This document shows positions 1-49,053 of a DNA stretch of 64,000 bases, in pieces. The translations under genes and the position numbers were made by a program. This DNA comes from Yuukianura sp. NJ FZ-2021. Lineage: Eukaryota. Location of the stretch: the NCBI GenBank assembly GCA_046563655.1, contig CM102289.1, positions 6,510,001 to 6,574,000 of the forward strand, read 5' to 3'. The notes under the pieces were generated by a model. The model was not told where the DNA came from and did not search any database. It saw nothing but the letters and a program-made list of their open reading frames with translations. How positions within the stretch are numbered: position 1 is the stretch's first letter; the number at the start of each line of letters is the position of its first letter.

Positions 1-1209
1 GACGCTTCACGGCTGTCGTTGTCGTCAGCGTCAGCCATAACTTCCCCACCAGCATCAGTTACTACTGGACAACAAAATCGTCCTCTTTTACCTCCCAAAT
101 CGAATTCAACTGTAACTTTACAAAAATTGTTGAACAGCGGTATTCAATACGGAGATACATCTATAAAGAGTCCAACAGTTTTCCAATTGAATCCTAATCG
201 AATTGTTGCCTCGTCCTTGAGCACGGCGGTGCCAACTGTGGCACATCCTAAGAAAAAGAAAATTAAGAAGATCAAAGACCCTGGGGATTCGGCAATCAAA
301 CTCCAATTGGTGACAAAGGAACCTACAGGATTTGACTATGTGACGCACATTGTCCCTCCAGAGTATGAGGTATGTCAATTTGACGTTTTCACGTCGTTAA
401 AACTTTCATTTAGTTCATTCTAACCATCTAAACTGAAATGTCGTATTCTTTTACAGGGTATGACGCATCCGGAAGCACCCCAGCAGATAGAACCGTCTTT
501 TAAGAATGGAAAAAATGTGTTGCTGCTTCATGAGTTTCCGGGCAAGCTGTTCCTCGAGCCATTTCCGTTTGTAGCCGTTCCTGTTGGACGTAAAAACAAG
601 GAAAAATGGAAGCGGCACTGCCCAAAAATACTTGTAGACTCAGACAACTATCATCCCATGGCTAAGAAACTAAAACGAACCGAATCAATGGAACGCCTAG
701 TACTACTTTCCGCTGGACAATGGATGCGTCACCATCAGAAAAAAGTTTCAGAAAAGCTAGCCATGGGTTCAGTTTCTTCAAACGATGGCGCTGTTGCTGC
801 CCAGCCTCAGCCACCACAACCCACCGCAGATTCGGAACCAGTTTTGAAGAAAGTTTGTTTTCGACTTCATGCCAAGAAACTTTGTAGACCTCATCACGCT
901 CGCAACGGAGGTTCGTATCTGGATGTCACAAAACACGTTGGGCCGCTTATAGAAGTTACGCAAGCGCTCAACGGACTGTCGACTGTAACGCCCAACGACT
1001 TTTCAGCTACACCTTCTTTGGCTAACTTTGACTCTGTCGACATGGTCAATATTGCTGCGGATGGTGTTGGACAGCAACAACAAATGTCGCCAGAGTCCTG
1101 TGAAGAAAATAGTAGCACTTGGATGGTTGAATCGATACCGAACATACCGGATGCCCCTGTAGGCGATAGTGAGTTACATAAATTGTTAGCTTCGCAGTTT
1201 GAAGACTAG
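1..1209 (+). CDS. 3' part of an unidentified protein-coding gene (last two exons)
   Basis: Open frame to 369, GT-AG intron 370-456, in-frame exon 457-1209 ending TAG (…HIVPPEYE|GMTHPEAP…ASQFED). S/T/P/Q-rich with a basic KKKKIKK patch. No family recognised; the 5' end lies outside the window. Confidence 0.7.
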
Positions 1210-3115
1210 TTCAACTTAATTATCTGCTAAGGAACTTCGCCTGAATCGTCGTTTTTGATTCACTCTTCAAAAAACAAAAGCAAAAAAAGGAAGTCTGTAT
1301 TTAATTAATCTGTGACGTTGATTTTTGTGATGAGTTTAAACTCCCTTAAAGCCAATCTGCGGTAATCAGGGAGCTGTCAATTGTCATTTGTCAAAAAGCA
1401 ATAGCATAATATGCTTATGCTTTCAATTTTAAACGGGAAACGCTGTTTAGTTGTAAAAGTTCGCCTGCGTGCGGATAAGTATTAACCGACATTTGGAGTG
1501 TAAAAATGTCTTCAAAATTGCCCTGTGATTTGTATTTTCCGCATAATTTGTAACATACGTAGTTTAATTTAACCGTTTGTTGTGTGACTACGCTGCTCCT
1601 GTGGTAGGGAAGCCGTTTTAAAATTTAGTATAAGGAGTTACAGTTAATTTATGAAAAGACAAGAAACTGAAAACTGAAATGTGTTAAGTTTATGTTTCAG
1701 CCACTGGGTTTTGAACAATGAAACATTTTGACTGAAAATCAACATTATAACCTGCCAATCATCGTTAATTTCTCAATTATGTTCCGTTTATTTAATTTAT
1801 CCTAATCAGAAATCCAGAATTTACGTCTAAAGTTTAAGTAAGTTATTATACCTAAGCAGTTAACTATTATACCTCATATTCAATTATGCAATTACTATGT
1901 GTAATTCTCAAGTTCTTGTGACTCAAAGCGTGTTTTTGTTGTAACAATTAATTGGTTTAGTAATGGTGTTGTACTAAAGACTTCATCAAGTTCAGTTAAT
2001 TAGAACTTGGTGGCATTGTAGCAGCAGCGCTAAAGTATACGTGAAAACATGCAAGAATCAACAAAAAAGAACTGACTTGTACTAAAAAGTTAACACCGAA
2101 TCGGAATCATTAAAACAAATAAATTGCAAATTTATTCTTGGTTGGTCTCAAAATTTAAGGTTTTGGGGTACTACATATTTCGAGAAAATTTTAAGTAAAT
2201 TATAAATTCCTTATGTTTTTAAAAATTTTGTTTGACCAGGTTTTTAACGGAAAAACATTTAAAAAAAAATCAAATGTGTTTTTAGTCTCTGTCCTCCGTG
2301 CACACTAAAAAGTGCAAAACAAACTGTTTTTAGAATTCCGGAACTTGACAAGTTTTGCTTGACAAAATGAGAACTTTTAACGTTGTTATGTTGTTCACTT
2401 GATTTTTATTTGAAAAAGTTGAAAGAAGTCGATTAATTGAAGCATTAATCAGTTAATTAATTCAAAAATGGAAAGTTTAGGGAATTTGCCAAAAGAATTG
2501 GAAACAGAACGAGAATTATAGCGACTTTTTACTTGATCTTGTGAGATGGGAAGGGGATGATAAAGTGGGCTGAATCAATACAGCGCCAGGCACTCGATTC
2601 AAACTCTGTAGTGTTTGCCTTCTCTTTTTTTTAATCTGTCAAAAAAAGTTGTTGCTACTGAATCTGAATCAGAAGGATTCAGGATTAGTCACTTTTTTTA
2701 ACCAGTGTTTGCATGATAAGTGAAAAATGATGTCAATTTAGTCAGACTGCCGATAGCCGATTGTCGTAGAATAGGAACAGTTGACCGCTGGTTGTCCTTC
2801 ACCTTCGTTCATTGTCACTCTTTTCTACATTTGGTAAGGTAAATATTTGTTTTTGGTTGTAAATGTTACATTGCATTGCAGTTGTACATTTTAATGGTTG
2901 CAATATTTATTGCTCATTATAAAAGTCATTTTGTTAATTATTATTGTGCAGGCAAGAAGATTGTTCCATATATAAACGCAGACAGATCTGTTTCCGGTCC
3001 CGTCTGCGGTAGCATCGTAAAAAGTTAAACGGTTTAACGAGGTGTTGCAAACCGATTCAGAGACATCAATTTTATCTACTAATTGTGGAACTCGATAACC
3101 AAAATTCAATACGAC

Positions 3116-6100
3116 ATGGCATACCGTAAGATGTTTTTCACTTTCGAACGTTATTTTTTCAAGAAGGCACTTAATTTAATTATAATTCTAAATCCATAGG
3201 TCAAGGAAATATTTCAAAGTATCGGAACTACAAGGCTGCCCCGCTTCACCAACGGTTTTATATTGACAATTTGCACAACATCGCGACTACTTGTCCAAGT
3301 GAGAGTGAATTGGTTCAAGGTAAGATAAGGAAATCGAATGACGCTAAATATAATAAAGTTTTGTTTTTGAAATGTCAATATTTGCTCTTGTGTGGTTTCG
3401 TTTTCAGCAAATCCAGATCGTGTTGCAGTGCCGTTAAACAAAGCTGGAGGAAAGATTGCTATTTTTGAGCTGTCAAAACCGGGCCGTCAAGAAGGAGGAG
3501 TAATTCCAGCGCTTGTACACGGAACAAAGGTGATGGACTTTGCATGGGATCCATTTGACAACACGAGACTCGTTGCTGGTTGTGACGATGGAAGACTTTG
3601 GGTTTGGAGCATTCCTTCATCCGGACTTGACGAATCTACAAACTCTCCTGAGTATATCATGAACGCACACTCGGAAAAGATTTACTTTGTGAAATTCCAT
3701 CCCTTGGTATCAAACGTCCTTGCTACTGGATCTCACGATTCTACAATCCGGATTTGGGATCTCGACAAACAAGCACAAATGATTCTCATTCATATTCCTT
3801 CTCACTTTGTAAGTCGAATTCATCCGAATCAGAAATCGTACGTCACTTTCTAACTTTCAATTTTTACCGGTTGCAGATACAAGTTTTTTGCTTTGCCTGG
3901 AGTCCATGTGGAGCTAAGTTCGGAATTGTATGCAAGGATGGAAAAGTACGAGTGTATGAACCAAGGGTGTCAGTTGATCCGATATTGGAAGCACAAGGTC
4001 CTAATGGAGTTCGTGGTGGTCGCCTTGTTTGGGTTCTGGATGGAAAATATCTAATTGTCGCCGGATTTGACCGGTACGCAATCCTGATCTTAGATTTTTA
4101 CAACTTCTAGCTGCATAAAACTTAAACTTTGCTGAATTCTTAGTTGCTCGGAGCGACAACTTCACATGTTTTCGGCCAGCGATTTAGAGCGAGTGACCAC
4201 ACTCGCATTGGATTCTTCCCCAACAGTGTTAATTCCATTTTATGACGAGGATAGCTCCGTGTTGCTTTTGAGTGGAAGGGTAAGTACTAAATTAGTACTA
4301 CCAATGGTTAACACGAATAGTTTCTGACCTACTCTTTATCGACTAAATTCAATAGGGTGATGTCACCATTTTTGCGTTCGATGTCGTTGCTGAAGCACCA
4401 TTCATTCGCCAGCTTGGACATCATCGTTGCAGCGGACCGCATTTGGGAATTTCTTTTTTGAAGAAGGTGGCATGTGACGTTAAAATTGTGGAATTTGCAA
4501 GAGGATTGAGACTCACCGAGTCAGCTCTGGAGCCTTGGAGTTTCACTGTTCCAAGAGTGAAGGTCTGCAACTATATCTAATGAATACATTTCAAAGTTTT
4601 AGTTGTAAATCTTAACGTGGTTGTTTATTTTGCAGAACGATTACTTCCAAGAAGATTTGTTTCCTCCAACTAAATGTCTTTGGGAACCAACAATGAGTAG
4701 CACGGAGTGGTTTGCAGGGCAAAATGTCAGACCAAAACGCGTCAGCCTTAAGCCCTTACATATGAAATCAAGTAAGAAGTTACCGTAAAACTTGAGCAAG
4801 TTCAGATCTTTAATTTTTTTACTCTGCCTATTCTTTGCAGCGAATATTTTGCCAGAAACGCGCTGGAGACCGGGACGAACTGACTCTAAGAGCTCCGTGA
4901 CTTCGGAAGACAACGAACCAAATTGCAAAATTCCAGACGACCACAATGTGGTTCCCGTGGAGGAAGTGAAAATGATGGAAAAGGAGAATTTTGAAACTCA
5001 AGACGATGCATATGACAAAGAGAACAATGAATGTGAATCTGACAATTCACGGAGGGGATCCGTTCCAGAACCGTTACCACGAAAGAAGTCTGTTTCTGGC
5101 TCATCTTCTGACGAAGTGACAGACGCAAATGGACGTCCTGTTCCACGACCGAGATTCAAAACTAATGTCAGTATGAGTAATCAACTATTATTGTTTTATC
5201 TCACATCTCTAATCTTATTCTTGTATTAGGGAATCCCTATGCTGAGAACCCCTAGTTCATTCCTGGCTAAGAGAATTTCAAGTTTGAACCGAAGTAGTTC
5301 GACGGAAGAGGAGGATCTTTGTGGTAATGGGCTACCAACTTATGCCGAAGCGACAGAAATGGAGCGCAACAATAGCAGTACTAAGAACGGCAATGAAGAC
5401 ACTGTTCGTTTAATTCAGCTTGCAGACGTCCCATTTCGTCAAGCAGAAGAGGCGACCGAGAAAGGCACAATCCATTCAGCAGCCGAACTGTCAACGTCAA
5501 ACGGAAATCATGAAAATGTCAAAGACGCAAACGCTGCAACGGCGCCTGATGTTGAAGACGGATCAACACTGGAGGAGGAGGTGGAAAATGCAAATGAACC
5601 GTTGACAAACGAGCCATCGATTCCATCTCGCGAAGAAACTCCAGAGAGACAGCTTACTGTGGCCGAACGACTGAAGCTTTTTAACCAAAATTTGTCGGAA
5701 AATAGTGCACCAACCGGAAACAGTGAATGGAAAAGGAAACCAGAAAGTGTTCATATTCAACCACCGCCTCAATCTACCACAGCTCCTGCACCAGTTACTG
5801 CTGCATTAGCTCCAGCTCCAACTCAAACTGCCAACGGAGAGAAACAAAAGGAAGTTAGGCACTTGGCACCATTTAGCAAGCCGGAACGAAAGATACCAGC
5901 ACAACAAATGGCATCATCTGGAGTTGAAACGGAAAAGGAGCCTGTCCGAAAAAGACTTGAAACAGTATTCGGTAAATTATCACAACTTTATGAATCTTCG
6001 ACTTCATTTTTATGGTATTTTCTATTATTTTTAGGCCAAGTTTCTAAATATCGGAATTTCAAGGCCGCTCCACTCCATAAGAAATTTCACATTGAAAATC

Positions 6101-8068
6101 TACGTACAATTAGTACGACATGTCCCGGGGAAAGTGAGCTAATTCAAGGTAAAAACTTGTAATACTGTGCGTATTTTTAGTGTTTCAGATAAACTTTGCT
6201 ACGAATTTTCAAAAAAAAAAAATTTTTTTTTAGCAAATCCGGATCGGTTGGCCGTGCCGTTGAACACTCCTGGTGGAAAATTGGCGATTTTCGAAGTTGC
6301 TAAAGCAGGACGTCAAGCCGATGGAGTCATTCCTGCTCTTGTTCATGGAACCAAAATTATGGACTTCATGTGGGATCCATTCGACAATGCAAGATTGGTA
6401 GTTGGATGTGATGATGGCCGAATTTTCATCTGGACAATCCCGGAAGATGGTCTCAAGGAGCAAACAAATGAACCAGATTATAGCATCTACGCACACTCAG
6501 AAAAGATATTCTTCACACGATTCCATCCCTTGGCAAAGGATGTGTTAGCAACAGGCTCTTATGATCTGACGATTCGAATTTGGGATCTGGATCAGCGAGA
6601 GGCGGAGATTTTGATTCAATTGGATACTGCACAGGTTTGAATTTAAAATATGCAAGTTTATCTAAAAAAAAATGAATTAAATTGCATGATGGAAATATCT
6701 TTTCAGATTCAAATATTCAGTTTCTCATGGAGTCCTTGTGGTTCCAAATTCGCTACAGCCTGTAAAGACGGAAAAGTGCGAATCTATCAGCCAAGAATCA
6801 GTACGGATCCGGAGTTGGAAGCAGTCGGTCCAGCTGGTGTTCGTGGCGGGCGTGTCGTTTGGGTTCTTGATGGAAAATATCTGGTTGTAGCAGGATTTGA
6901 CAGGTAAAAATTCATGCTAAAGTCCGTAATGTTAGATTTTTTGAAATTTCGACGATTGACTTCTCGCTGTGGTTTTTCCAGATCTTCAGAACGACAGCTC
7001 CATGTGTACTCATCCGAAGACTTAACCAAAGTGTTCACAACCTCTCTTGATGTGTCGCCAGCCATCTTGGTTCCGTTCTATGATGAAGACAGTTCGATCT
7101 TGTTTCTCAGCGGCAGAGTAAGCTTTTCAGTATAAGAAACGTTTAGTAGACAAAAATATTTACATATGATTATTTTTATAAATATAGGGTGACAGTACAA
7201 TTTTTGCCTTTGACGTTGTTGAAGACTCGCCTCCACTTAAGAAACTGAGCGACCATCGCTGCGCAGGAGCCCATCAAGGCATTTCTTTTTTGAAGAAAAA
7301 TGCATGTGACGTACGAAATGTGGAATTTGCAAAGGCATGGCGGTTGACTGAATCTGTTGCCGAACCTTGGTCTTTCACCGTGCCGCGCGTGAAAGTAATT
7401 TTAAATATTGAATTGAACAACATTATGACATTGTAGCTCAAACGATGACTTACGTTAATTTTATACACATTTTAGAATGAGTTCTTTCAAGACGATTTGT
7501 TCCCGCCTACAAAATGTCTATGGGAACCAACAATGGACAGTCAGGAGTGGTTTTCTGGAGGGTCTGCGAAACCCAGACGAATTAGCCTCAAGCCAACGAA
7601 TATGAAAGCGGGTAAGCAAAAAAGTTTAATTATTTTGAATGCTATTCTCAAAAGATTTGCTTTACTTTCAATTTTTTGAAATCTGATTTGATTAAGTTGG
7701 AGAAGTAAATGTTTCATCAGCTGCCGCAGCCACAACGGAGGCTCAGGGCAAAGGTGACGTTGGACAGAAGAATGGAACCAAAATTGGAACAGATATTTCT
7801 AAAATCAAGGATTCGGCCGCTGTATGGCACAAATTACTACCACAGCTTTGGACTTGTAACAAAATAATTATTTTTTGTGTGTCATTTTAGTACGAACTGG
7901 AGGATGCCATAAAGCAGAAGATGGTTCTGAACATGAAGTTGGAGCAGGATTCAATGGAAGGAGTGGATGAGTCAGAATGGGTGAGCGGAACTGCAAATTG
8001 AAACCTGACGCTTGGATTTAATTGTTAAACTAATTTGCTTCTTCCGTTTTTTTTAGAATGAGGATTGA
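3116..8068 (+). CDS. pod1: Coronin-7/pod1-like WD40 actin-binding protein with two coronin modules, a long acidic/Pro-rich linker and an acidic C-terminal tail
   Basis: Spliced start MAYR|QGNISKYRN (ATG 3116, intron 3126-3199). Repeated motifs ANPDR.AVPL, MDF.WDPFD, FHPL..VLATGS, WSPCG, PFYDEDSS, CDV..VEFA, FQ.DLFPPT. C-terminus LEQDSMEGVDESEW|NED* is typical of coronin-7. Confidence 0.92.
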
Positions 8069-10373: not shown

Positions 10374-11695
10374 ATGTTCTTACTGTTGTTGGCTTTATTT
10401 GCGTCGGCCACCGCGCAATCGCCAATGTCTTCAGTTTGTCAGGGCTTTAATCCGCCACTACCGAATCCTTATCTGGCAATGGCAGTGTCTCCTTATACGA
10501 AAGAGCAATGGACACCATGGGACCATCCAGGAACGACGTTGAAAGATGTCCAAGAAATTGTCAACCTAGTCGGACCTTGTACAAGAGCTATAACTACGTA
10601 CAGTATGGGAGTTTACAGTAAGACAAGAATTTTTTTTAGAATTTTAGAATTTTTTTTAGCTTTTTGCTGTGAGCTTTTGGCTTCCTTTTAAAAAAAATCG
10701 CGGTACCAATTCTGAAAATAACGAAAATTTTCGACATTTTTGTGGTGTGCTATACGCAATGAAAATGATCCAAGAATACCGTATTGCCTGGAATATATTT
10801 ACCGCGCTAATTTTCGTCATTTGAAATCATTACAGAGGGTAACTACCAAGATCCTGGCGGTTGGGCTGGTCCTAAAATGTTTCGCAATGCTCTGATACCA
10901 ATAGCTGCCGCCAACTACAACCTTGACAACCCTCAAAACGATGGAACCGTGGCTATAACTGTCACTCCCGGAATTTACCAAATTGACGACGACTTGGCTG
11001 TTCAAAAAACAGAAATTGAAAACGCTTTCCTAGCTGCTGACTACGCCAATGGAGTAGTTAAAGGAACTGTTAAAAGTATTGTGTTTACAAACGAGTATAT
11101 TACAAATTATGCCAGAGGATTTTATGTTTATGGGTTACTACTACGCAGCAAAAGTAGAGCTGAACGTTCCAATATTAAGATTGGTGTTAGAATTCACACT
11201 TGTTGGGCAATGGATCCTAATCCTAATGAATGGATTCGTAATCAAGCAGATTACGCGCCTCTCAAGAACATTTTGACCGAAATTGCTAAAATTTCGGATT
11301 TTGTGATGTGCAATATCTACCCGCCGGCACCCTTTAATTCAGCCAATATTGGTTGGGCAGTTGGTAATGTCACTCAAATGTACACTGCTGCTAAGAAGGG
11401 GTTTCAAAGTGTCAATCAAAATATCAATGTCATTCTTGGTGAAACGGGGTGGTCATCTGATCTTCCCAATTTTTACAATGCACAGCAATACAACACTCCA
11501 AAGAACCTAATTGCGTACTGGAAAGCAATTAACACTTGGTGTAACGCTAACAAAGTGGAGTGTAACATGTTTGAAGCCATTGATGAATCATGGAAGAATA
11601 GATCTGATCAGGGAGGAGCTCTGGGTGGTGAAACTAAATTTGGCTTATGGGTTAGAGACGGAACTGGAAAATACATTGGGAAAGATAAATTATAA
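10374..11695 (+). CDS. Secreted glycoside hydrolase family 17-like beta-1,3-glucanase/glucanosyltransferase (2 exons)
   Basis: Signal peptide MFLLLLALFASATA; intron 10618-10835. GH17-type motifs IVFTNEY (acid/base Glu), VILGETGWSS (nucleophile Glu), FEAIDESWK and ETKFGLW. Confidence 0.82.
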
Positions 11696-29494: not shown

Positions 29495-30676
29495 TTTTAC
29501 TCCTCCCTTCGAAAAAATTGTTAGACTATTAATTTTATACCTCATTTTGCTACAAAATCCTGCTTAAAATAGCTGAAGTTCAATATAAGTGAACACTATG
29601 ATGCATAGTAAAGCATTTACCTGGCTGTAGAGTGTTGGCAAGCAATCGGGACGTGAACAGATCAGTGAAAACTGACAAAGGAAAAGAAATCAGGTGAACG
29701 TGGGCGTGAAAACTTGTGTTTAAATTGCCAAAAATTTATTAGCAAATTATGTTGTTGAAATTGATATTTTCTTGTGATACGATAGTGTTGTGAAGGAGAA
29801 ACTGTGCTTAATTTAATTTTAACTGTGGTCTAAAACTCTATTAAACTAAAATTAGGACTGTAGGGTGTGGGAAGTGCCAGACTCCTCTGCAAAGACCAGG
29901 GCGGAAGTGAAAGTCCTACGGAAGATTTCGGGTGAAAGCAGAGGAACTGGGCGGATTCATCATCTGTCAAATGCAGGGATTCTGATAATCATTTTTGTTA
30001 TACGCATGCGTGAACTACATTTTTGATCCCACCTAAGGTGGTCTTATTATATCGATCTTCATTTTCACTTTCCCCTATAGTGGTTTACTGTGTAAACGCC
30101 TTTCCAGCAAATTATGTAATCTAAACGCGTATTTAATTTTCCCCAAAGTCCTATCTAAGTCATCTGCAAAATTGGGGTGAAGTGTATTAAAATTAAAAAT
30201 TTCTGAATTAAAATTTCCACCAGAAAACAAAGTCGTGAATTAAATGCAAGTCCACTTTTATAGAATGAAGAAATTGAAATTCAAAATAGGGCGTCATAAT
30301 TTGTTAGACAAAACCCTAAATACATTTGGGATAGGCAACAAATGTCAAAAAAAAACACAAAAGCCATTTTTTTTAATTATTCGAAGCGTATTTCGAATTT
30401 CAATTTCATTTTTGCGGAAAACCACATGCTGTTAACTCGATTTAGAGTTTCTGGAAAAAACAGACTTAATATGTCAAACATCTATGACTTAAGAAAAATT
30501 TTCATGGAACGCCAAAAATAAGCATACGCAAATTAACGTTAACTAATAACAATTAACTAAACAAGGCTAGCTTTAATTAACGTACTGGATATAAACACAG
30601 TCTGCAGACGCTTCGGCAGCAATTCTTATTTCAGAATTCCAGTCTTTTTTGATTATCAAAAAAAATTTTTGAAAAC

Positions 30677-31336
30677 ATGAACGTTTCAGTTTTATTTTTT
30701 GTAGCCCTAGGTTTGATTGTGTGTTCAAGCGACGTTGTATCTGGAGGTGCCACTGGTGTCGGTGGAACTGAAGTTCAAGTCATTCCAAACACCAATTTGC
30801 TGACAGGCGTCTACTATAGAATCGGACTGCCAGATCATGACTTTTCCGTTTTGACTTGGGCCGACATCAACGTACAGGGATCGTCTACCGCCAAGTATAT
30901 TCAAATGGATGACCATGTTGACCGGACACACCGGTACGTCCAAGGTGGAAACTGGTATAGAGATGGGCTATGGTTCTTCAGACCTACAGACAAACCTGGG
31001 TTTTACGAACTTCGCTGTGGCGGTAATGCAAACGTGATGATGGTAGCAAGTTCGGAAAAAATTTCGGCCGAACCGTCCACCGCTCCTCCGGATCACTACT
31101 TGACTTATTCCCGAACTAATGGATCAGACAATGAAAAGTGGGAGGTCATACCGGGTCCGGGAGGTCAAACGTTTCGGTTGAGAAACTACGGTATGGATGG
31201 GTTTGCCGTGACGACACACCGATTCGGATCGTTCTACCGATGGGTTAAGGTCAAACAGCAGACGGGTGAAGGAAGGTCAAATTCATGTGGATTTGAAACA
31301 TCAAGATTTACCTTCAAAGCAGTAAAGGCCTTCTGA
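30677..31336 (+). CDS. Intronless secreted protein, family member 1 (possible beta-trefoil/ricin-B-like fold)
   Basis: 219-aa ORF with signal peptide; TATAAA at 30590. Repeated W-x-hydrophobic…G-x-Y/F-x-L/I-R/H units (LWFFRPTDKPGFYELR; KWEVIPGPGGQTFRLRN). Fold is inferred. Confidence 0.8.
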   Translation: MNVSVLFFVALGLIVCSSDVVSGGATGVGGTEVQVIPNTNLLTGVYYRIGLPDHDFSVLTWADINVQGSSTAKYIQMDDHVDRTHRYVQGGNWYRDGLWFFRPTDKPGFYELRCGGNANVMMVASSEKISAEPSTAPPDHYLTYSRTNGSDNEKWEVIPGPGGQTFRLRNYGMDGFAVTTHRFGSFYRWVKVKQQTGEGRSNSCGFETSRFTFKAVKAF

Positions 31337-31655
31337 GCGTAGGTTTTAAAGCCGTTTTTTCGACGATTCATAATTTCATTTTTCAAAAAATAAAATTTCA
31401 CAGTTTGCCGTTCGAATTGCTAACATCTCAAGTGTTAGTATAATAATGTTAAAAAATTAGAAAATTTTAATCAGAAGGTAATGAACATTAATTTAAAATA
31501 AATGGCAGTTTTTGTAATCCAGAATTTTCAAGCGCTGTTTTTAGATTGTATCCACGGACTAATTGCTTCTTAAGTGTAATTTAATAGTTAAAAATTTGTT
31601 ATAAAAAGGTAATTTACAAAAAGCCTTTCATCAAAACAACCTCATTTTTTTGAAA

Positions 31656-32339
31656 ATGGATTTCAAGATTATCTTTGCGTTGTCCGTGGTTGTAATTGCC
31701 ATTGGCAGTTCTTCTCTCGCAACTGCAGATGCAACGGGTGCTGGCGATGCAGAAATTAAAGTCATCGAGCAAACAAATCTGCTGACCGGCGTCTACTACC
31801 GAATCACGTTACCGCACTACCTATTTGCCTATTTGACCTGGGCTGACAGGATGGTTAACGGCTTGAACGATGGCTTCCTTTTGCAGATGGACGACCATGA
31901 GTACAGGGCAGCCAAGTATGTTCAAGGAGGAGAATGGTACCAAGACGCCCTCTGGTACATTACTTCCACAGATATGGCCGGATTCTACAAAATTCACAAC
32001 GGAGCTGACAAACATCGAGTAATTGCAGTGACTACCGAGCCACTGACTCCACCGGACCAAGCTCCAACGGACTACTACTTGACCTCAATCATAGACTGTC
32101 CTACGAACAACACGTACTGGGAAATTGTACCAACAGGAGACCTGGACACTTATGAACTTCGGAATTATGGACTTCAAGGACTCGCTGCGACTGCGCTCCG
32201 ATTTGGAGATTTTTATCGTTGGATTCGTCTGAAACAACAAGCAGAGGATGGACGACGCGTCAGTTTCGACGAAACAGCTTCTACTCACTTCAGATTCAAA
32301 GCCGTTGCTGTATCTTTGGGAGATCAGCAACAGGATTAA
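31656..32339 (+). CDS. Intronless secreted protein, family member 2
   Basis: ATG at 31656, signal peptide, TATAAAA at 31600. Clear paralog of members 1 and 3 (NLLTGVYYRI, QMDDH, RFGDFYRW). Confidence 0.82.
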   Translation: MDFKIIFALSVVVIAIGSSSLATADATGAGDAEIKVIEQTNLLTGVYYRITLPHYLFAYLTWADRMVNGLNDGFLLQMDDHEYRAAKYVQGGEWYQDALWYITSTDMAGFYKIHNGADKHRVIAVTTEPLTPPDQAPTDYYLTSIIDCPTNNTYWEIVPTGDLDTYELRNYGLQGLAATALRFGDFYRWIRLKQQAEDGRRVSFDETASTHFRFKAVAVSLGDQQQD

Positions 32340-32724
32340 ATAAGCACAACGGCCCATAAACGATTCCGAACTGGCACCATATATTTTAAAATTTCATTTT
32401 CAAAATTTGAAAGTGATTTTTATAATTTGGAACATTGGAGTGTGTAAAATTGCAAAATTTTAAATTAAAGCTTATCGATTTATTTCTGCAACACATTTTG
32501 GAATTGCCTAAGATTTTTGCATTCTAATAAATCCAAACCATTTCTGTAAAAAAAAAAAAGGTCAAGGTCACGCAGTTGTTTTTCTCTGGTATTACTTTCC
32601 AATTTGACGTTCAAAATAAGTTGATATCACGCCATTTGCTTGATACAAATAAAAATGAGAAAGAAGTTGAGCATATTTTATCTGCCAAATTGAATGTGAT
32701 TGACCTTCAAAACAAAAAATGATC

Positions 32725-33095
32725 ACTAATATAGCATACGTACTTGTAAGCTAACTTTAAAACCAACAGCAATTAACTAAAAATGAAAATAAGCTTAAAT
32801 AAGGTAACTTTATGTTACAAAAATTCCAGATCTTTTAACAACTATTCTTATTTTAGAACTGTCCCTTTCCTTCGGAGATAAAGAAATGTTCGTCTTGAAA
32901 ATAAAATTTTAGCTTTTGAAAAATTCAGTTTTCTTGTTTGTTTCTTGTCAGGAGCTGGAATCAGGGGCGCTGAAATTCAAAGTAATTTCAATTTTCCAAA
33001 AACAGAATTGTCCAAAACAGAAACGTCGGTGTATTAATAATCAAATTCTTGTGTATCCGAAGTGACTCGATGCACATATTACGGAGTGTGTCTCT
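32725..33095 (+). pseudogene. Decayed 5' relic of a member-1-like gene and its promoter
   Basis: AGCATACG…CAATTAACTAAA…ATTCTTATTTTAGAA resembles 30520-30640. GGAGCTGGAATCAGGGGCGCTGAAATTCAA (GAGIRGAEIQ) resembles GATGVGGTEVQ. No intact frame. Confidence 0.45.
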
Positions 33096-33101
33096 AATTT
33101 A

Positions 33102-33298
33102 CAGGGTTGCAAAAAATATATACTAAAAACCAGCGAAATATTTAAATAAATGCAATATTTACTGAAAAAGCTGGAAATATTTACTAGCTTAACATTACGG
33201 GCAGGGGGAAATAAATAAATATTTCGTAACAAAAATGCTCGAAATATTGATTTTGTTAACATTACAGGCATGGGAAGTAAATATTTTTTGCAACCCTG
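33102..33298. mobile_element. hAT-type MITE (197 bp)
   Basis: Perfect 18-bp TIRs CAGGGTTGCAAAAAATAT and an exact 8-bp TSD CTAATTTA (33094-33101 and 33299-33306). Confidence 0.92.
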
Positions 33299-33602
33299 CT
33301 AATTTAACACGTTTTTCTCTAAAAAATGAAATTGTCCAAAAAAGATTTCTATGTTTCAAATTTCTATTTCTAATTACCACACGTACGCTCCAATGTCATA
33401 AAAATTTATCAATTTGAAATCAGAAAGTAATGCGTATAATATAAAATAAATGACGTTTTTCTCATTTCAAAATTTAAACGCATTTTACATTAAGATAAAG
33501 CACTAATTGCTTCTTAAGTTTAAGTCAATAGTTTTAAAAAATCGGTATAAAAAGCGACTTTAAAAAAAATTAACCAAACAGCTCTTTATTTCTTTTCAAA
33601 AA

Positions 33603-34271
33603 ATGGATATCGTTCTTGCTTTGTCCGTCGGTGTCATTGCCCTTGGCAATTGTCACCTTGCATCCGCCGGTGCAACTGGTGCGTCAGGCACTGAAATCAA
33701 AGTAATTGAGCAGTCGAATCTGCTTACGGGAGTATACTACCGAATCAGCCTACCATACTACGCGTTTTCTTATTTGAGCTGGGCTGACAAAATGGTTGAC
33801 GGCATGAGCGACGCTTTCTTTATTCAAATGGACGACCACGAGTACCGAGCTTCCAAGTATGTTCCAGGCGGAAACTGGTACAAAGACGCCCTGTGGTACT
33901 TTACTCCCACCGATACTGCCGGATTCTACAAAATCCATAATGGAGCTGACAAAAGCCGAGTAATTGCTGTAACTACTGAACGAGTTTCACCACCAGATGA
34001 CGCTCCACTTGACTACTACTTGGCTTCAATCAAAGACTGTCAGACGAACAACACCTACTGGGAAATTGTACCAACATCTAATTTTGATACGTACGAACTT
34101 CGAAACTTGGGAATGCAAGGACTCGCTGCAACTGCGCTCCGATTTGGAGATTTTTACCGCTGGGTTCGTCTTGAACAACAAGCGGATGATGGACGGCGTG
34201 TCAATTTTGATGAAACGGCTACTACGCACTTCAGAATCAAAGCTGCTGCGGTAACTTTGCGTGATCAATAG
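33603..34271 (+). CDS. Intronless secreted protein, family member 3 (closest to member 2)
   Basis: 222-aa ORF, signal peptide, TATAAAA at 33546; upstream region homologous to that of member 2. Confidence 0.82.
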   Translation: MDIVLALSVGVIALGNCHLASAGATGASGTEIKVIEQSNLLTGVYYRISLPYYAFSYLSWADKMVDGMSDAFFIQMDDHEYRASKYVPGGNWYKDALWYFTPTDTAGFYKIHNGADKSRVIAVTTERVSPPDDAPLDYYLASIKDCQTNNTYWEIVPTSNFDTYELRNLGMQGLAATALRFGDFYRWVRLEQQADDGRRVNFDETATTHFRIKAAAVTLRDQ

Positions 34272-38390: not shown

Positions 38391-39388
38391 ACAGCCTGAA
38401 CTTTTTGATCCAGTATGAAAATACCGATGTTTGTGATTTTGTTTTGTTTAAAAAGAAGTTTTTAATCAACTTAAAACGTTTGAAACCTTTGTACCACATG
38501 ATCTCACGGTGTAAGGAAACTCTAGGTTAAAAGTTTTCAAAACGGAGCCTTTGTTTCAAATTTCTCTTCTAAAATTTCTTCTGAAATCAACTAAAAACTA
38601 GTCATTTTCGGAACAAGCCAGAGGGCCTGTATTACTTTTGATTTCGGTTCTATGTGTTTTCAAAGTTTAAATTTTGGTATGCTGTCTTATCATTAACTGT
38701 CAACCGACATCAGTTTCAGTAGAATAAAAACCTACGTGCTGGCTATAAAATTTTTAAGATTCGTTTGAAAATTGTTGAAAACGGAATCTGGTGATTGATG
38801 ATTAATTTGATTTAACAAAAAGAAAGGAAGCGCTAAAATTTAAATTGCTTTGTTCGGAATCTTTGTTTTTGAATTAGCTTCCACTATGTGCAAATCATTT
38901 TAATTTGTCACTAGGTTGGGGTAATTTTTTGTGTTTTGCTAGTACAGCTAGTACTAGGTTTAGTCTAGAGATTTCCAAAGTTAGAAAAAAAAGGTTGGAC
39001 GAACAATATGCAACGAGAATGCAATTTTCAAAAATATTTTAACTCTGCTTATTGTTGCACCGTATTTGGTTGCGTCGCATGTGCAGTCCCCATTAGAGGT
39101 TATTTACTTTGACGCAGCTTTCCACTTCGCCAAAATTCCATTTTGGGAAAATTTCTTTTAAAAAGGTAGTAAAAAAAAAATAAAAGATGTGTTGTAAAAA
39201 TTGTTCTCAAAAAGTCGTCCAATTTCGGTCAATTTGACGTTTGGTGTCAATTTCACCTTCTTTTTTTCTTTTGTCTTATTACAGAAATAGTGTGATCTAG
39301 ATATTATCTAGTCCATTAAAAAAAATTCGAAACCAAACTCGTCTTTGATACACGGTAGGCACTCCGAATTTTTAAATACTTTTTCAAA

Positions 39389-40864
39389 ATGCTGCAATTT
39401 CAAAGCATTTTTGCCCTCTTGTTTCTGATACCGTATTGGAATTCGGCGCATGAGCAGTCACAACTAGTCACAATTCCAGTGGCAAAACTGTCAAGTTGTC
39501 TCAGACAGGGGAACGTGACCTTTGTATTGCGAAATCGACATTCTAAACTTTACGAAAAGTTAAATTACCAGTGGAATACTTTCAACTACATTGAACCCCT
39601 GGGCTATATTGTTCCAGAAAATACCGCGCAGGTTCAAGTAGCTGTGACATGTACAAGAACCCTTGACTTCCATATTGCTATTAAAAGTGGGGGACACTCC
39701 TATGAAAAATATTCCTTTGGAAATGGCAGCTCAGTGGTCATTGACCTCCAGAAATTCAACTTTGTTGAGGTCAATCGGAAGAAGTCAACTGCCTACGTTG
39801 GTCCAGGAGTGCTCGCAGGTCAACTTGAATATCAACTTTGGAAAGATGGTAACTACGTACTTCCAGCTGCAGTATGCATTTCTGTTGGTTTTGGCGGAGC
39901 AACGCTTGGCGGAGGGCTGAGTTGGTTATCTAAAAAGTTTGGAATGACAACCGACAACGTTTTAGAATTTGAAATGGTAACAGCAGACGGACAAATTTTG
40001 ACAGTCAATTCCTATCAAAATCAAGATTTGTTTTGGGCCCTGCGCGGAGGAGGTGGTGGAAACTTTGGAATTGTAACAAATTTTAAACTTCGAATTTTTG
40101 ATGCAAGTGGGTTGCATTACAAATTGATCGTCTTGCGTTACCCTTTGAGAGAAGCTGGCACAGTAGTTGACGCTATTCAAAAATTTTGTTTGAAATATGT
40201 GAACAGAACAACTTTTCTATTTGCTGTTTTCAATGAAACTGGCATCGTTGTGCAACTGTTGGGTTTTAATTTGTCTCGTCGTAATGCAAATAAACTTATT
40301 CGAGAATTTCCAGAGCCTGCAGCAACTTTAGTTAATAGGTTTTCAACTCTTCCGGAATTGGCTGTCTTTTTTCCAATTTCAACCAAAATAACTAAAGTAT
40401 CTGAATTGAAGGATCCGTCTAACTTAAGAGAAGTTCCAAATTTCAAAAAAGTCAAGTCATACTATGTCAACAGAGTAGTTGAAAGTGCTACAATTCAAAA
40501 GCTGGGAAGCGTTTTAGGTCGTATACCCCCAACCTTCCACGTATACATAATCTCTTATGGAGGAGCAATCAACCACATTCCGAAACACAAAACGGCTTTT
40601 GTACACCGCAACTCTATCTACAATGTTGAGCTCAAAATTGGTTCAAATGATTCCGCCAAAATGTCTTGGGTGAAGGACTTTGACGCGGCAATTTCAAATG
40701 TAGAAAATTGTGAAAGTTATCAAAATATGGTCGACGCAACACTTCCAGACTACTTGCAGCGATATTATGGATCGAACCTGTATCGCCTCCGTGAAATCAA
40801 AACCAAGTACGATCCGACCAACTTCTTCAATTTCCCGCAATCCATTCCACCACTTAAAATCTAA
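39389..40864 (+). CDS. Intronless secreted FAD-linked oxidoreductase (berberine bridge enzyme/AA7-like) 1
   Basis: IKSGGHSYE (FAD-linking His), AVCISVGFGG (second-linkage Cys), DLFWALRGGGGGNFGIVT, C-terminal BBE motif YYGSNLYRLREIKTKYDPTNFF.FPQSIP. Confidence 0.92.
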   Translation: MLQFQSIFALLFLIPYWNSAHEQSQLVTIPVAKLSSCLRQGNVTFVLRNRHSKLYEKLNYQWNTFNYIEPLGYIVPENTAQVQVAVTCTRTLDFHIAIKSGGHSYEKYSFGNGSSVVIDLQKFNFVEVNRKKSTAYVGPGVLAGQLEYQLWKDGNYVLPAAVCISVGFGGATLGGGLSWLSKKFGMTTDNVLEFEMVTADGQILTVNSYQNQDLFWALRGGGGGNFGIVTNFKLRIFDASGLHYKLIVLRYPLREAGTVVDAIQKFCLKYVNRTTFLFAVFNETGIVVQLLGFNLSRRNANKLIREFPEPAATLVNRFSTLPELAVFFPISTKITKVSELKDPSNLREVPNFKKVKSYYVNRVVESATIQKLGSVLGRIPPTFHVYIISYGGAINHIPKHKTAFVHRNSIYNVELKIGSNDSAKMSWVKDFDAAISNVENCESYQNMVDATLPDYLQRYYGSNLYRLREIKTKYDPTNFFNFPQSIPPLKI

Positions 40865-41194
40865 ACTTGCCAAGCATCATTGATAATTCTTGTATGCTAA
40901 CATTGGCTCGGTAAGAAGTTTCCAAACAGTTACTAGTGATAAAAAAATTACCTTATAATTCATAAAATAAAGGTTTCAAAGTTTCAAAAGTGATTTTGCA
41001 CATAGATCATTGTACCAAACATGTGGAAAACTTTTTCATATTAAGTTTCAAATTCAAACTGTCAATAAGAAGAACAATATGTCATAAATTAATACTCTGT
41101 GCCCATGAATTTTCTTTAAAAAAAAAGCAACCTAAAAAGCCAGGAACAGAAATTTGAAAACCATACGGCAGCAAGTTTTAAACGATTCAGTACC

Positions 41195-42706
41195 ATGTTA
41201 GTTAAAATGTTACTTTTTCAAAATCTTTTAAAAATGTTAGTGGTAGCACCGGACTTGCCTATTGCAGTCGCTGGGTTGCTGCAACGCCTAACCTTAGTGC
41301 AACTATCTACTTGCCTAAAGTTGGCTCAAGTGACATTTGTACCGCGAGATTCAAATTCCGTAAATTACAAAAAATTAAACTACCAGTGGAATACTTTCAA
41401 CTACATTGAACCTATGGGCTACATAGTTCCAGAAAACACCGTACAGGTTCAAGCAACGGTCCTATGTACAAGGAAGCTCAATGTTTCAATTGCAATCAAA
41501 AGTGGTGGACATTCTTATGAGAAATATTCATTCGGAGATGGTAACTCTGTGGTCATTGACCTCCAGAAACTGAATACTGTCAAGGTCAACCCAAGAAGGT
41601 CAACTGCAAAAGTTGGGGCAGGAGTGCTTGGAGCTCAGCTGAGCTACTACATTTGGAAAAATGGAAACTTTGTAACACCAACTGGAATGTGCATCTCCGT
41701 AAGTTATGGCGGAGTAGCTTTAGGTGGTGGATACAGTTGGTTGTCTCCAAAGTTTGGAATGGTGGCTGACAGTCTATTGGGAATGGAAGTTGTAACAGCA
41801 GCGGGAGCCATTTTGAGAGTCGATTCCCGCCAAAATCAAGATTTGTTTTGGGCACTACGCGGAGGTGGCGGAAACTTTGGAATTGTAACGAATTTTAAAA
41901 CTAGAATATTTAATGCCGCCGATCTTCGCTACACCATTGTTGTGCTGAAATATCCTTTAACCCAAACCAGTGCACTATTTGATGCTATGCAAAAGTTTTG
42001 TATGAAGTACCAGAGGAAATCCGTTGCGCTTATTGGAGGAGTACTGAATACTGGAATTATTATTTGGCTTTTTGATACGAACTTATCTCAAGACGATATG
42101 CGTCAATACATTCAAGAATTCCCACCACCTTCATCGCAATCTGTCAACACATTTTCCACTTTTCCAGAAGTTGTGCTCTATTATCCTGTTTCAGTTAATG
42201 TGTCCAAAGTTTCAGATCTAAAGGATGCTTCCCGCTTAGTAGCTGTCCCGGTTACGGAAAAGGTAAAATCTTACTATGTCCGAAAAGTTGTTGGAAACAA
42301 TGCGATTCAAAATTTGAGTAATGTTTTGGCGCGTATTCCCCCAAGCTACGAATTCTACATTCTCTCCAACGCCGGTGCGATCAACAAAATTCCAAAAAGT
42401 GAAACAGCTTTTGTGCATCGCAATGCCATCTACTACATTGAAGTAAAGATTTTTCCGGATCGGCGAGGAGGAATGGCTCCTTCTTGGAACAAGGACTTTC
42501 AAGCGGCAATTTCAAATGTGGAAGATGGTGAAAGTTTTCAAAACATGATTGATGGAACACTTCCCGACTATTTGCAACGCTACTACGCATCAAATCTTCA
42601 ACGCCTGCGTCGAATCAAAACCAAATACGATCCAACCAATTACTTCAATTATCCTCAGTCGATTCCGCCGCTTAAGATTTCCCGCGGGAAAGAAATCTTT
42701 CTTTAA
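41195..42706 (+). CDS. Intronless FAD-linked oxidoreductase (BBE/AA7-like) 2, tandem paralog
   Basis: Same motifs: IKSGGHSYE, GMCISVSYGG, LFWALRGGGGNFGIVT, KTKYDPTNYFNYPQSIP. Confidence 0.92.
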   Translation: MLVKMLLFQNLLKMLVVAPDLPIAVAGLLQRLTLVQLSTCLKLAQVTFVPRDSNSVNYKKLNYQWNTFNYIEPMGYIVPENTVQVQATVLCTRKLNVSIAIKSGGHSYEKYSFGDGNSVVIDLQKLNTVKVNPRRSTAKVGAGVLGAQLSYYIWKNGNFVTPTGMCISVSYGGVALGGGYSWLSPKFGMVADSLLGMEVVTAAGAILRVDSRQNQDLFWALRGGGGNFGIVTNFKTRIFNAADLRYTIVVLKYPLTQTSALFDAMQKFCMKYQRKSVALIGGVLNTGIIIWLFDTNLSQDDMRQYIQEFPPPSSQSVNTFSTFPEVVLYYPVSVNVSKVSDLKDASRLVAVPVTEKVKSYYVRKVVGNNAIQNLSNVLARIPPSYEFYILSNAGAINKIPKSETAFVHRNAIYYIEVKIFPDRRGGMAPSWNKDFQAAISNVEDGESFQNMIDGTLPDYLQRYYASNLQRLRRIKTKYDPTNYFNYPQSIPPLKISRGKEIFL

Positions 42707-46277: not shown

Positions 46278-47094
46278 AGGTTTTCTAAACATTTTTCTTA
46301 TTGTAAACCTGGACTAAATTCAAAAATAAAATGTTTGTATTTCACATGAAAAAAATCATATTTCATATCTTCATTTCGTTGAGAAAAAGCTTCACTTCAT
46401 CTTTCTGAGTGACCGTGTTACTTAAAAACTTGTAGAATAAAGTTTCGTCGGAATCCTCAAAATGTCATCAAGCGGAGGGACAGCAACATACAGGGTGAGC
46501 GACAGTAATACCATTAATAATACGCCGTATGTTAAGTCACGAAACAAAAATGGAATGCACAACACGGAAGTTGTCTACTTCCGGTGAAGCCTCAAGCGGA
46601 TTAGTCACCACCAGTTCATGCAACTAAATCAAAAATTAGCTAAACCAAAACCGTACTTTTTTAATGCAAAACGAAACTGTCCAGTACAGAGGTGTTGACT
46701 TTTTCAATCCGTACTTTTCAAATACTGTAGCAACTTAAAACAACGTTTAAGGCATTTCGGGAATTTTGAAAACTTGACAAATATATTTAAGTTTTATGTT
46801 TAGTGAGTTTTGAGAAAATCACAACTTAAAAATCAATTTGTAAAAATCGGTGAAAAAGGGGTATGAACTAAACTTGGAACTTTTGACAAAAAAAGTTGCG
46901 TGCGCATTTTTATTGATTTTTCAGGATTTAACATAAACTTCCTGCTTTCACCCTTCGACTTCCCATCGGTTCTAGGGATCCCGGCTTGTATTTTCTCTTT
47001 AGACTTTCTATATTTTGCCCAAAAAAAAATTAACTTGATTTCTTAATTGATTTATACCTTGATTAGCTATTTGAAACCTCAAAGCATTAAGGTT

Positions 47095-48857
47095 ATGGGT
47101 CAACTCTGGAGTTTATTGTTCAACACGAATCATTCAATCAACCAATCAACCAATTTTTCTCAACACAATCCTCAAAGTAACCATGTTGTGGAATTTGAAA
47201 ATTTGCCGGTGCCATTAGCTCTTCGGAATCCATACGTGCTCGAAACAGTGTTTTCATATTTGGATCTCAAATCGTTGAAATCTGCGAAACTTGTTTCAAA
47301 ATTTTGGACAAAAGAGGCTTGCCGAGCTTTTCGATCGAAAATATTCATTCGACATTTTCCGGGGGCCAAAACAGAGTTCGGCACAGTTTCGCAGTTTATT
47401 ACCGCAAATAGTTTGGCCCAAGATCACGCACTCCTCATCTCATTGCTCAATTTTCCATGGCATTCAGAAGGAGAGTCATATGGAAACGTGCCATATCGAA
47501 AGTTGTCTCCTCAAGAAATCTACTTCCAGCAAAACAGTATCACCTACGCAGAGGAAATAACAGCAGTTATTAAAAGAATGTCGGATACTGGCGCAATATT
47601 GACTGAACTTCGGCTCGAAATGGCGTTAGTGAATGAAGTTGACGCTAAACTTTTGGTTGAGATGCTCACTGCGTCTCCCAGTCTGCGTAGATTGGCTCTG
47701 GATTTTATCCGAGCAACAAATGAAGCTTGCCAAGCCATTCCACTTGACTCTTTCCAGTGTTTGCAGCGATTGGAAACGTTTTCTTTTGGAGTTCAATATG
47801 TTGAAGACATCATTGAAGAAGCAGTCAGCAAAGAAAGTTATCTTCATTTGATGAAGTTGTTTGCACAAGTCAAATATCTTGACTTGGAACTGTGGCATCA
47901 GTATTACTCCAGGCGAAGTGACAGATGTTTTCAAAAGTACTGCCTTGAAGCACTGAGTTCTGAAACTAGAACTACTGGAAGTACATTTTCAAATTTGGAG
48001 GGAATCCGCCTCAACAAAGCTTCTACTGCCCCACTTTTATTGGCTTTCCCTAGGAAATTGAATGTTTTCAGTCTGAGAACTAATACTGACGAGTGGGATT
48101 TGATGGAATTCCTTGGTTTACATTGCGAAACGCTCGAAATTTTGGAGCTCAGCATTGGACGGTTATTTTTTCAAGAAGATTATGTACGCGATCTAGGTGA
48201 CGGTTCTGGCTCATTTCCAAGTCTTAGGTGCTTGAACTATCAAGTTTTTAATCCTGTGGAACCAGACGAGTTCTTTGAGGATCTGGCAGATCCACTCAAT
48301 TTAAGAACTGCAATTTTGGTACAATTATATAATATCAGTATTATGTATTATTACTGTAAGTATATAAATCCATTATGTGAAATATTTATTTTCAGCGGGG
48401 GGAGTTTTCCAAATGGAATCCATCACTGGCGGAACTTGCCATTGTCTTAGTCTTTCCAGACACGGATAAGTATTTCAACTACATTTTTCCAGAATTCACC
48501 ACGGACGGTTCATACGTTCAAATCAATCAACTGAAGTATTTGGGAATTAATTTCATTGGCGACTGCAATTCCGAATTGGTCATGCGCCTTCATCGCCAAT
48601 TTCCAAATTTGGAAACCTTGAGACATTTTAAAGAAGAACCAAAAAATGAAAAGACCAAAGGTTGGTGGAGGACAAGAAAGAGACATTTCGTAATTTGTGA
48701 ACATTTTCTACGTAGGCATGGAGGTCATGCGCAGAAGTATTGCAAATACACAAAAAGTTTTGAAACAGAGAGGGAATGGATAGGAATGCCCTCATATTTT
48801 AATATTTTGTCGGATATGGCGAAATATTTGTTCCAAGACAAACACTTCTTTTGGTAA
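47095..48857 (+). CDS. F-box protein with LRR-like C-terminal region, copy 1 (2 exons)
   Basis: MGQLWS start; F-box-like ALRNPYVLETVFSYLDLKSLKSAKLVSKFW; intron 48319-48395; LxxLxL repeats. Confidence 0.82.
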
Positions 48858-49053
48858 TAATAATAAAAGCCAGTTTAGAAATGTGTAATTTTAAATTTAA
48901 TTTATTTTTTAGGTTTACATGCCTAAAAATGCCACTAAAAAGTTGATTTTGCAACTTCTAAAAGTACACTAAAAGACAAACTATGATAACGCTAATAGTG
49001 ATAACGCTAACGTTTCTGCAAGAGCCACGAAGAATTTTATGTACGTTTGAATT

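Follow-up and report, generated by a model that had tools for sequence, protein, structure and literature searches.

A coronin-7 gene with two C-type coronin domains in Yuukianura and a related species

Background

The two propellers of coronin-7 have differed from each other since early in eukaryote history (PMC3203266), and the N-propeller is described as dating back to the last common ancestor of eukaryotes. The class-3 coronins (Coro7/POD-1) are described in that work as having two tandem coronin domains split by a unique region and a C-terminal CA domain with a conserved Trp, 20-30 aa beyond the second domain; they lack a coiled coil, group with one another by domain and occur as one homolog per genome. 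Mucor circinelloides coronin-3, which consists of the C-domain only, is described there as well. In human Coro7 the first propeller, beta-1, is a CCT/TRiC client and the main N-WASP-binding half. The debranching model of PMC12592476 leaves the beta-1 binding site undetermined, and PMC12992956 states that the two propellers, at 27% similarity, give no basis for predicting what sets beta-1 apart. A literature search by title and start of the abstract, with most subscription papers and supplements outside its range, returned no coronin-7 with two C-type domains (C+C, as opposed to the canonical N+C), and among the matches listed there was no coronin work for Collembola, springtail, Folsomia or Orchesella. 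Whether the C+C form is new may also depend on the species lists in PMC3203266.

Results and discussion

The gene lies on contig CM102289.1 of Yuukianura sp. NJ FZ-2021, in a window of 64,000 nucleotides (the whole stretch of DNA analysed, to whose forward strand all coordinates refer); the host and the relatives compared with it are probably springtails. In our exon model, 18 exons separated by GT-AG introns join into a single open frame of 1230 aa, from the ATG at 3116 to a stop codon ending at 8068, in the order unit 1, linker, unit 2 and CA tail. HMM searches place coronin domains at residues 6-401 and 759-1154 of one predicted frame, and we hold the two-unit architecture with high confidence. 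Unit 1, a C-type coronin domain in the N position (3200..4771; exons 3200-3319, 3408-3808, 3877-4073, 4144-4279, 4356-4562 and 4636-4771), spans residues about 5-402 and matches Pfam DUF1899, WD40 and WD40_4, and unit 2 is a C-type domain in its ancestral position (6035..7611; exons 6035-6148, 6234-6634, 6707-6903, 6982-7117, 7188-7394 and 7476-7611). Each is built of six exons, the first of 120 nt in unit 1 and 114 nt in unit 2, the others of 401, 197, 136, 207 and 136 nt in both. The low-complexity linker between them (4841..5971; exons 4841-5166 and 5230-5971) is about 356 aa long, compared with 71 in human Coro7, and the tail (7697..8068; exons 7697-7821, 7891-7980 and 8057-8068) carries a CA domain, with a central helix and an acidic Trp motif, before the stop.

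Both units are of the C-type, as the preliminary description had claimed, and its coordinates and signatures proved right. Units 1 and 2 share 271 of 398 aligned residues (68-68.7% identity), whereas the N- and C-modules of 143 other tandem coronins are 24.6-38.1% identical. The C- and N-modules of Orchesella coronin-7 match unit 1 at 66% and 28% identity and unit 2 at 72% and 30%, respectively. At 36 columns that separate N- from C-modules, unit 1 carries 26 C-type, 1 N-type and 9 other residues, compared with 30 N and 2 C in a control N-module; the C-HMM outscores the N-HMM for unit 1 (592 vs 238 bits) as for unit 2 (622 vs 246 bits). The same C+C gene is present in L026, a metagenome contig from a second, related species, and all four units of the two species retain 76-81 of 82 conserved C-columns. 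The HxxxI half of the C-type semi-CRIB, a motif taken from PMC4855144, is visible by alignment in units 1 and 2. A beetle C-module, used as a proxy for unit 1, is predicted to form a complete coronin domain by itself (pTM 0.87), with a target-normalised TM of 0.91-0.94 to coronin-1 structures; by this proxy the fold would be that of the short coronins (coronin-1A/1B and the genome's own).

A phylogeny of the separate N- and C-units had been set beforehand as the test that could overturn this assignment. In our tree, obtained by a quick search from 61 module rows (of 15 fragment rows set aside here, 14 were used in the placement test of the relative L027, see below), unit 1 groups with the springtail-type C-modules (SH-aLRT 100), and both units fall inside the animal C-module clade, in a tree that holds no short coronin. 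Forcing unit 1 among the N-modules is 555 log-likelihood units worse and is rejected (p-AU 1e-83); the first domain thus lies outside the ancient N-type clade that characterises canonical N+C genes. A set of 383 sequences contains 241 two-module proteins, of which 238 are N+C, 2 are C+C (the window and L026) and 1 is unassignable. The relatives Orchesella and L028 still have an N+C coronin-7; more springtail sequences may exist, for example four further members of the Orchesella cluster.

The gene in L026 shares all 17 introns in position and phase (17/17) with that in the window. Between the species, 339 of 397 residues are identical in unit 1 (dN 0.097), 340 of 397 in unit 2 (dN 0.10) and 54 of 72 in the tail, dS is 1.5-3.1 or saturated, and dN/dS is 0.03-0.07 in the units and about 0.19 in the linker. 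Both units are under purifying selection. Because L026 is another species with an independent assembly, the C+C gene is not an assembly artefact; that reading, or that of a recent decaying duplication, for which we found nothing, is also contradicted by the low dN/dS, by the 75 of 116 fourfold sites that differ between units 1 and 2 and by the 17 nt of the longest DNA run common to them, and we give it practically no weight. Gene conversion between the units left no signal in the informative sites (117 ortholog-type, 23 within-species and 17 control-type). Calling the protein near-homodimeric was an overstatement, since 57 of 395 columns are fixed unit 1/unit 2 differences in both species. The flanks of the window showed no synteny match with those of L026 and L028.

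No N-type exons had been seen in 1209-3116, which our N-HMM search bears out: no pieces of an N-type module were found there or elsewhere in 74 kb, where each of the 10 N-HMM hits with E below 1e-4 falls on an exon of unit 1 or unit 2. Genome searches found no canonical N+C pod1 or N-module beyond the window gene, and two N-module pieces of L028, compared with the genome, match nothing but unit 1, unit 2 and the short coronin (24-45% identity). The two coronin loci found are the window gene and one short coronin (G000:C8:706146-708760, approximately). The C8 matches were ruled out as a canonical pod1, being this short coronin with its coiled-coil tail, and a C6 match resembles by eye an unrelated WD40 gene. 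The genome assembly may be incomplete. The proposal that an internal duplication of the C-module replaced the N-module finds support in the tree and AU test together with the genome searches, which turned up no N+C gene elsewhere.

The regions outside the units have kept a coronin-7 character. Linker residues 403-530 align with the linkers of Orchesella and L028 (scores 128 and 117, reached by 0 of 500 shuffles) and score no better than shuffles against the tails, and the phase-0 intron of the linker is also present in L026 and L028. To judge from this likeness, unit 1 is followed by the ancestral linker between N- and C-modules, and therefore the copy occupies the N position. The tail aligns with insect and mammalian coronin-7 tails, so that the acidic, W-containing tail was correctly described as kept; about 40 aa separate unit 2 from the CA domain, a distance that is similar or longer in Orchesella and L028, against the 20-30 aa of the class definition. 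The protein has a single acidic-W motif, at residue 1220, and neither that motif nor a CA tail was found after unit 1.

Both units very likely share one mRNA and one 1230-aa protein, because they lie in one open frame, because no acidic-W tail or AATAAA occurs between them and because linker and exon structure are conserved in L026. A rival arrangement, in which each domain is a gene of its own or in which an internal promoter yields mostly a short transcript and unit 1 is expressed independently, could draw on the five Met codons of the linker, but both linker exons are open in frame in two species, neither AATAAA nor ATTAAA occurs in 4772-5971, and the linker motifs and intron match those of a canonical single gene, which makes such an arrangement very improbable.

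The other class-3 traits are present: two tandem coronin domains split by a unique region, a CA domain with the conserved Trp, grouping with class-3 domains and, as in Coro7, POD-1 and Dpod1, no coiled coil and one locus found in the genome. The trimer motif R-[VILM]-x-x-[VIL]-E is absent, while the short coronins have one domain and a coiled coil and the C8 gene carries the motif; a crude heptad score is 0.33 here and 0.68 in the short coronin tail, our positive control. The C+C gene is a variant of class-3 coronin and not a new kind of system. The nearest named sequence, Orchesella dallaii coronin (P0001, 1229 aa), likewise joins two coronin domains by a long hexapod-type linker, with motifs in common, and ends in a CA domain; it differs in its first domain, which in Yuukianura is a C-type paralog, and in an inter-domain identity of 29.0%. 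Human Coro7 shares the CA tail with its acidic Trp motif and hydrophobic central helix as well as the C-type semi-CRIB HxxxI, whereas its beta-1 domain type is absent here.

Seven intron positions and phases had been reported as shared between the units. Six lie on the same column and in the same phase, but the intron at the 5' border shares only its phase (phase 1), being two codons further upstream in unit 1. The idea of a clean swap of a symmetric 1-1 cassette likewise stands in part: the C-module of L028 has phase-1 introns at both borders, but in this gene, the one canonical springtail-type structure available, the N-module lacks introns both at codon 4 and at its 3' end and is not phase-1 flanked, so that two new splice junctions are needed. 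We propose that the six C-propeller exons were duplicated together with their flanking phase-1 splice sites and that the copy came to rest behind the start codon and ahead of the old linker, the N-propeller being lost; the route would be an intragenic or whole-gene tandem duplication combined with deletion. The start exon (2952..3125, the 5' limit being predicted) holds the ATG at 3116 and 10 coding nt, which specify Met-Ala-Tyr and the first base of Arg, and a non-coding exon probably ends near 2833-2838. L026 shares this 10-nt piece and its phase-1 donor, and in-frame stops precede the ATG in both species. The coding piece is probably a remnant of the ancestral coronin-7 N-terminus, in which case the donor after codon 3 would be a GT within the old Arg-4 codon. 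A MAWRF start occurs in 68 of 143 two-module proteins, but the canonical springtail-type genes of Orchesella and L028 start MMRRF and MSRRF, which weakens the reading as a remnant of MAWR.

An N-propeller lost first, as in Mucor circinelloides, and a C-module duplicated later would lead to the same end state, and a C-only coronin-7 is already on record; L027, whose 5' end is absent from its contig, could be an intermediate. We consider this order of events unlikely: none of the relatives seen is C-only, the long ancestral linker would have to have persisted while there was no N-terminal domain, and the placements of L027 give AU values of 0.77, 0.36 and 0.12. If it were true, selection would have acted on having two propellers and not on propeller type. 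Replacement of the N-propeller by the C-copy, long ago and in what is the lineage's only coronin-7 (POD-1) gene, with debranching retained, is the explanation that we think probable overall. Compared with the single domain of the Mucor protein, a second C-type domain before the old linker here keeps the tandem.

Under this explanation, we rather expect, by analogy with human Coro7, that the C+C protein would still dismantle Arp2/3 branches: the CA tail would bind Arp3, unit 2 the daughter filament, and unit 1, on its long flexible linker, would act as a second claw in the role of beta-1 in the human model. The swap would be tolerated because the F-actin affinities of human beta-1 and beta-2 are similar and one semi-CRIB motif is sufficient. 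The copy may not fill every beta-1 role, because in human Coro7 beta2-CA is a weaker debrancher than the whole protein and fails to restore trafficking, and most N-WASP binding resides in the N-half (PMC12592476, PMC4855144).

A point against retained function is that unit 1 lacks the F-actin-binding Arg of coronin-1A and -1B. Residue 29, in the exon at 3202..3318 by alignment, is His in unit 1 and Arg in unit 2 of both species, in the column of coronin-1A Arg29 and coronin-1B Arg30. This column was set by C-module alignment to PDB 2aq5 and 9qey and to the genome's own short coronin; since a PDB search with the 39-aa exon gave no match, the Arg column was fixed through P0079. PMC3339874, the only paper on the residue-level coronin-actin interface that our search found, reports that this Arg is required for F-actin binding by coronin-1A and -1B and that coronin-1C binds actin even without it. 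Among insect-like sequences after de-duplication, a basic residue at the column is absent from 76 of 77 N-modules, whereas all 71 C-modules carry Arg or Lys there, and the change to His in unit 1 is suggestive, as one site. Unit 1 also has a longer stem than unit 2 in the tree (0.21 vs 0.11) with more stem changes (26 vs 6), and in rate tests 3 of the 4 comparisons with springtail-type outgroups reach p<0.01. The same gene history could thus have ended in a re-specialised unit 1, no longer a canonical F-actin binder but partner-binding or autoinhibitory, in place of the arthropod N-propeller. We regard this as possible, though doubtful: His29 is one of 26 changes, of which 3 match the springtail N residue and 2 the N consensus, so that a general convergence on N-type residues is unsupported; neither of the two tests with an insect outgroup is significant; three of the "unit 1" states are found in L027 as well, in its C-position module, and may be older than the duplication; and coronin-1C, as noted, and human beta-1 do bind F-actin.

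Conclusions

The conserved C+C gene is a natural domain-swap experiment on the purpose of the front (N) domain. It offers two domains separated by no more than 57 fixed differences; one of these domains has long been in the N position (synonymous sites are saturated), and therefore the effects of position and of sequence can be tested against each other. If the dependence of beta-1 on CCT/TRiC is sequence-specific, the C+C protein may fold without that chaperonin. We suggest, tentatively, that the N-propeller can be replaced by its partner domain and that the N position then reshapes the newcomer; because the copy seems to have lost the actin-binding Arg, like arthropod N-propellers, the first claw of hexapods may not be a standard F-actin binder. 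The gene clearly exemplifies the replacement of a domain by its ancient paralog within a single gene, and the C+C form provides a rare-event marker for what is probably a springtail clade.

Two C-type modules in one gene

The coronin-7 gene, with exons fitted by coordinate on the window sequence, comprises 18 coding exons from an ATG at 3116 to a stop at 8068, all 17 introns being GT-AG, in a single open frame of 1230 aa. In the predicted protein, four residues precede unit 1 (residues about 5-402; 3200-4771); some 356 aa of linker separate it from unit 2 (residues 759-1155; 6035-7611), and the tail that follows measures about 75 aa. Its nearest named relative, joined to it with full support in the tree, is that of the springtail Orchesella dallaii, and the animal itself is on these grounds probably a springtail.

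The preliminary description took both units to be of the C type, the second propeller module of canonical (N+C) coronin-7, and identities, profiles and phylogeny all bear this out. The two units share 271 of 398 residues and differ at 75 of 116 fourfold sites, and the identity of unit 1 to the Orchesella modules is 66% for C and 28% for N. N and C profiles made from nine canonical coronin-7 proteins found two full modules in 144 of 285 sequences; the window protein's own two modules are 68.7% identical, compared with 24.6-38.1% in the other 143. In an enlarged set, insect- and isoform-rich like the first and with only one named springtail, two modules were present in 241 of 383 sequences, of which 238 were N+C, one was divergent with almost equal N and C scores, and two were C+C, namely the window protein and that of metagenome locus L026. 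In a quick IQ-TREE run on 61 separate modules, the unit 1s of both species fall among the springtail-type C-modules, in a clade of seven rows (SH-aLRT 100), and 28 N-modules form a separate branch (support 99). Placement of unit 1 among the N-modules was rejected (20 rows, 390 columns; delta lnL 555, p-AU 1.4e-83). Within the C clade, sisterhood of units 1 and 2 was weakly preferred over two alternatives (p-AU 0.034), and by KH and SH tests it was not significantly better. By descent the protein is a class-3 coronin.

The intron pattern had been described as seven positions and phases shared by the units. Six borders match in both column and phase; the 5' border intron is of phase 1 in both units and lies two codons apart, so that only its phase agrees. 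Six bases into the exon that opens unit 1, the window (3200-3205) and its counterpart in a second species (L026:377-382) both have a second AG, which would give the same border as in unit 2; perhaps the acceptor shifted, or perhaps both AGs are used. In the canonical gene of L028, a metagenome locus from the same broad group, the C-module has five of the seven borders, both phase-1 borders included. Its N-module has three other introns, none at module borders, one of them a single base off a C-module intron and within alignment uncertainty.

The C-type copy in the N position

Behind unit 1, the linker shares motifs with the post-N-module linkers of Orchesella and L028 (scores 128 and 117, reached by 0 of 500 shuffles) and is unlike either tail, the tail scores being reached by 186 and 479 of 500 shuffles. 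A C-type copy occupies the N position, ahead of the ancestral post-N linker. The start MAYR resembles MAWRF, the commonest start among two-module proteins (68 of 143), and in both the window and L026 the first donor GT forms the last two bases of a would-be Arg codon. The old start would then have been kept, with the donor arising in codon 4, although two canonical springtail-type proteins begin MMRRF and MSRRF.

A second species and the age of the duplication

Of 102 pattern hits in a metagenome scan, six were confirmed as matches, and these fall in five loci. L026 carries an entire C+C gene of 18 exons with an open 1215-aa frame, and its 17 introns all agree with the window in position and phase, the 10-nt first coding piece included; this agreement is partly built in, as the model was guided by the window protein and its splice-site weights were trained on the window. 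Between the two species, unit 1 is 85% and unit 2 86% identical, with dN about 0.10, dS 1.5-3.1 or saturated and dN/dS 0.03-0.07; identity in the linker falls to 55% (dN/dS about 0.19). The low dN/dS in both units indicates that both copies are maintained. Site patterns gave no signal of gene conversion between units (117 ortholog-type, 23 within-species, 17 control-type), which together with the saturated synonymous sites implies that the duplication predates the split of the two species.

A third related species (L027:19-1508) provides the linker and half a C-module only; it shows a weak affinity to unit 1 (79%), and the AU test does not separate its placements. Three derived residues of its C-position module are found in unit 1 and one in unit 2; there is an intron at residue 177. 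The remaining loci, L029 and L030, hold more distant arthropod-like genes. A search with the Orchesella C-module returned 784 proteins at E < 1e-150 among 5286 candidates; among the 120 matches listed, Orchesella alone exceeded 61% identity and no protein was C+C.

Divergence of unit 1

Unit 1 has a longer stem in the tree than unit 2 and 26 derived fixed changes against 6; unit rate tests were significant in three of four comparisons with springtail-type outgroups and in neither of two with an insect outgroup. By these sequence measures unit 1 has diverged more than unit 2. One change stands out: it falls at the column of coronin-1A Arg29, a residue on which coronin-1A and -1B, and not -1C, depend to bind actin (PMC3339874). 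Both unit 1s have His here, and both unit 2s, L027, L028 and Orchesella have Arg. With duplicate domain heads removed, 71 of 71 insect-like C-modules have Arg or Lys and 76 of 77 insect-like N-modules lack a basic residue; in other animals, 18 of 35 N-modules have Arg. Most mammal and fish N-modules listed keep a basic residue. This concerns one site only, and unit 1 shows no broader convergence on N residues (3 of 26 changes).

Genome search and neighbouring genes

A search for a canonical pod1 found no N-module in the 98.7-Mb assembly (22 contigs), which is possibly incomplete. Of 14 matches to the Orchesella protein (25 candidates, each scored), 12 lie at the coronin-7 locus on contig C7, none of them in the query's N-module part, and two weak ones are on contig C8. 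Two N-module pieces of L028 matched only weakly, to the same two loci. Pfam scans gave three WD40_4 and five DUF1899 matches, at the coronin-7 locus and C8, plus a sub-threshold hit on contig C3. C8 carries a short coronin, which has a coiled coil and the trimer motif, rather than a canonical pod1. A profile scan of 74 kb (3120 six-frame pieces) detected no N-type remnant.

Upstream of the gene lies the 3' end of an SCA7 zinc-binding domain (ataxin-7-like) gene (window 1-1209, +), continuing from L025:8845-9981 in the adjoining stretch, and further upstream are CAF1A-like and chitin-binding peritrophin genes. Downstream, a 294-aa frame at 10811-11692 (+) matches glycosyl hydrolase family 17 and is, at a guess, a candidate horizontally acquired glucanase. 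A 501-aa FAD-binding berberine-bridge-type oxidase (39359-40861, +) and a 528-aa frame that begins similarly (41120-42703, +) are possibly tandem horizontally acquired genes. Three tandem frames of about 230-245 aa at 30653-34268 (+) have similar signal-peptide-like starts, and at least three related genes at 47047-56648 (47047-48447 +, 52169-53398 -, 55368-56648 -) have F-box-like starts by eye; one member scanned from each group had no Pfam match.

Predicted function and significance

In human Coro7 the CA tail (a central helix and acidic Trp motif) binds Arp3, and each of the two propellers binds F-actin at 5-11 uM. Debranching is weaker with beta2-CA than with the full protein, and ER-Golgi transport is rescued by the full protein alone; the debranching model does not fix where beta-1 binds (PMC12592476). 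One intact semi-CRIB suffices, and the N-half accounts for most N-WASP binding (PMC4855144); CCT/TRiC binds the first propeller only (PMC12992956). By sequence comparison the CA tail, unit 2 and linker of the window protein are intact, and each of its units retains 76-81 of the 82 conserved C columns. A beetle C-module alone, a proxy for unit 1, is predicted to fold as a full coronin domain. On the simplest reading, by analogy with human Coro7, the window protein would act as a debranching factor, with unit 1 supplying the second claw.

A survey of 723 coronins reported a C-only coronin-7 in Mucor, and parts of its main text contain no C+C form (PMC3203266). We found no C+C coronin-7 in the literature searched. 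Duplication of one domain with loss of another is commonplace; coronin specialists would probably be surprised that so old a domain was lost, and the C+C protein makes the role of beta-1 testable.
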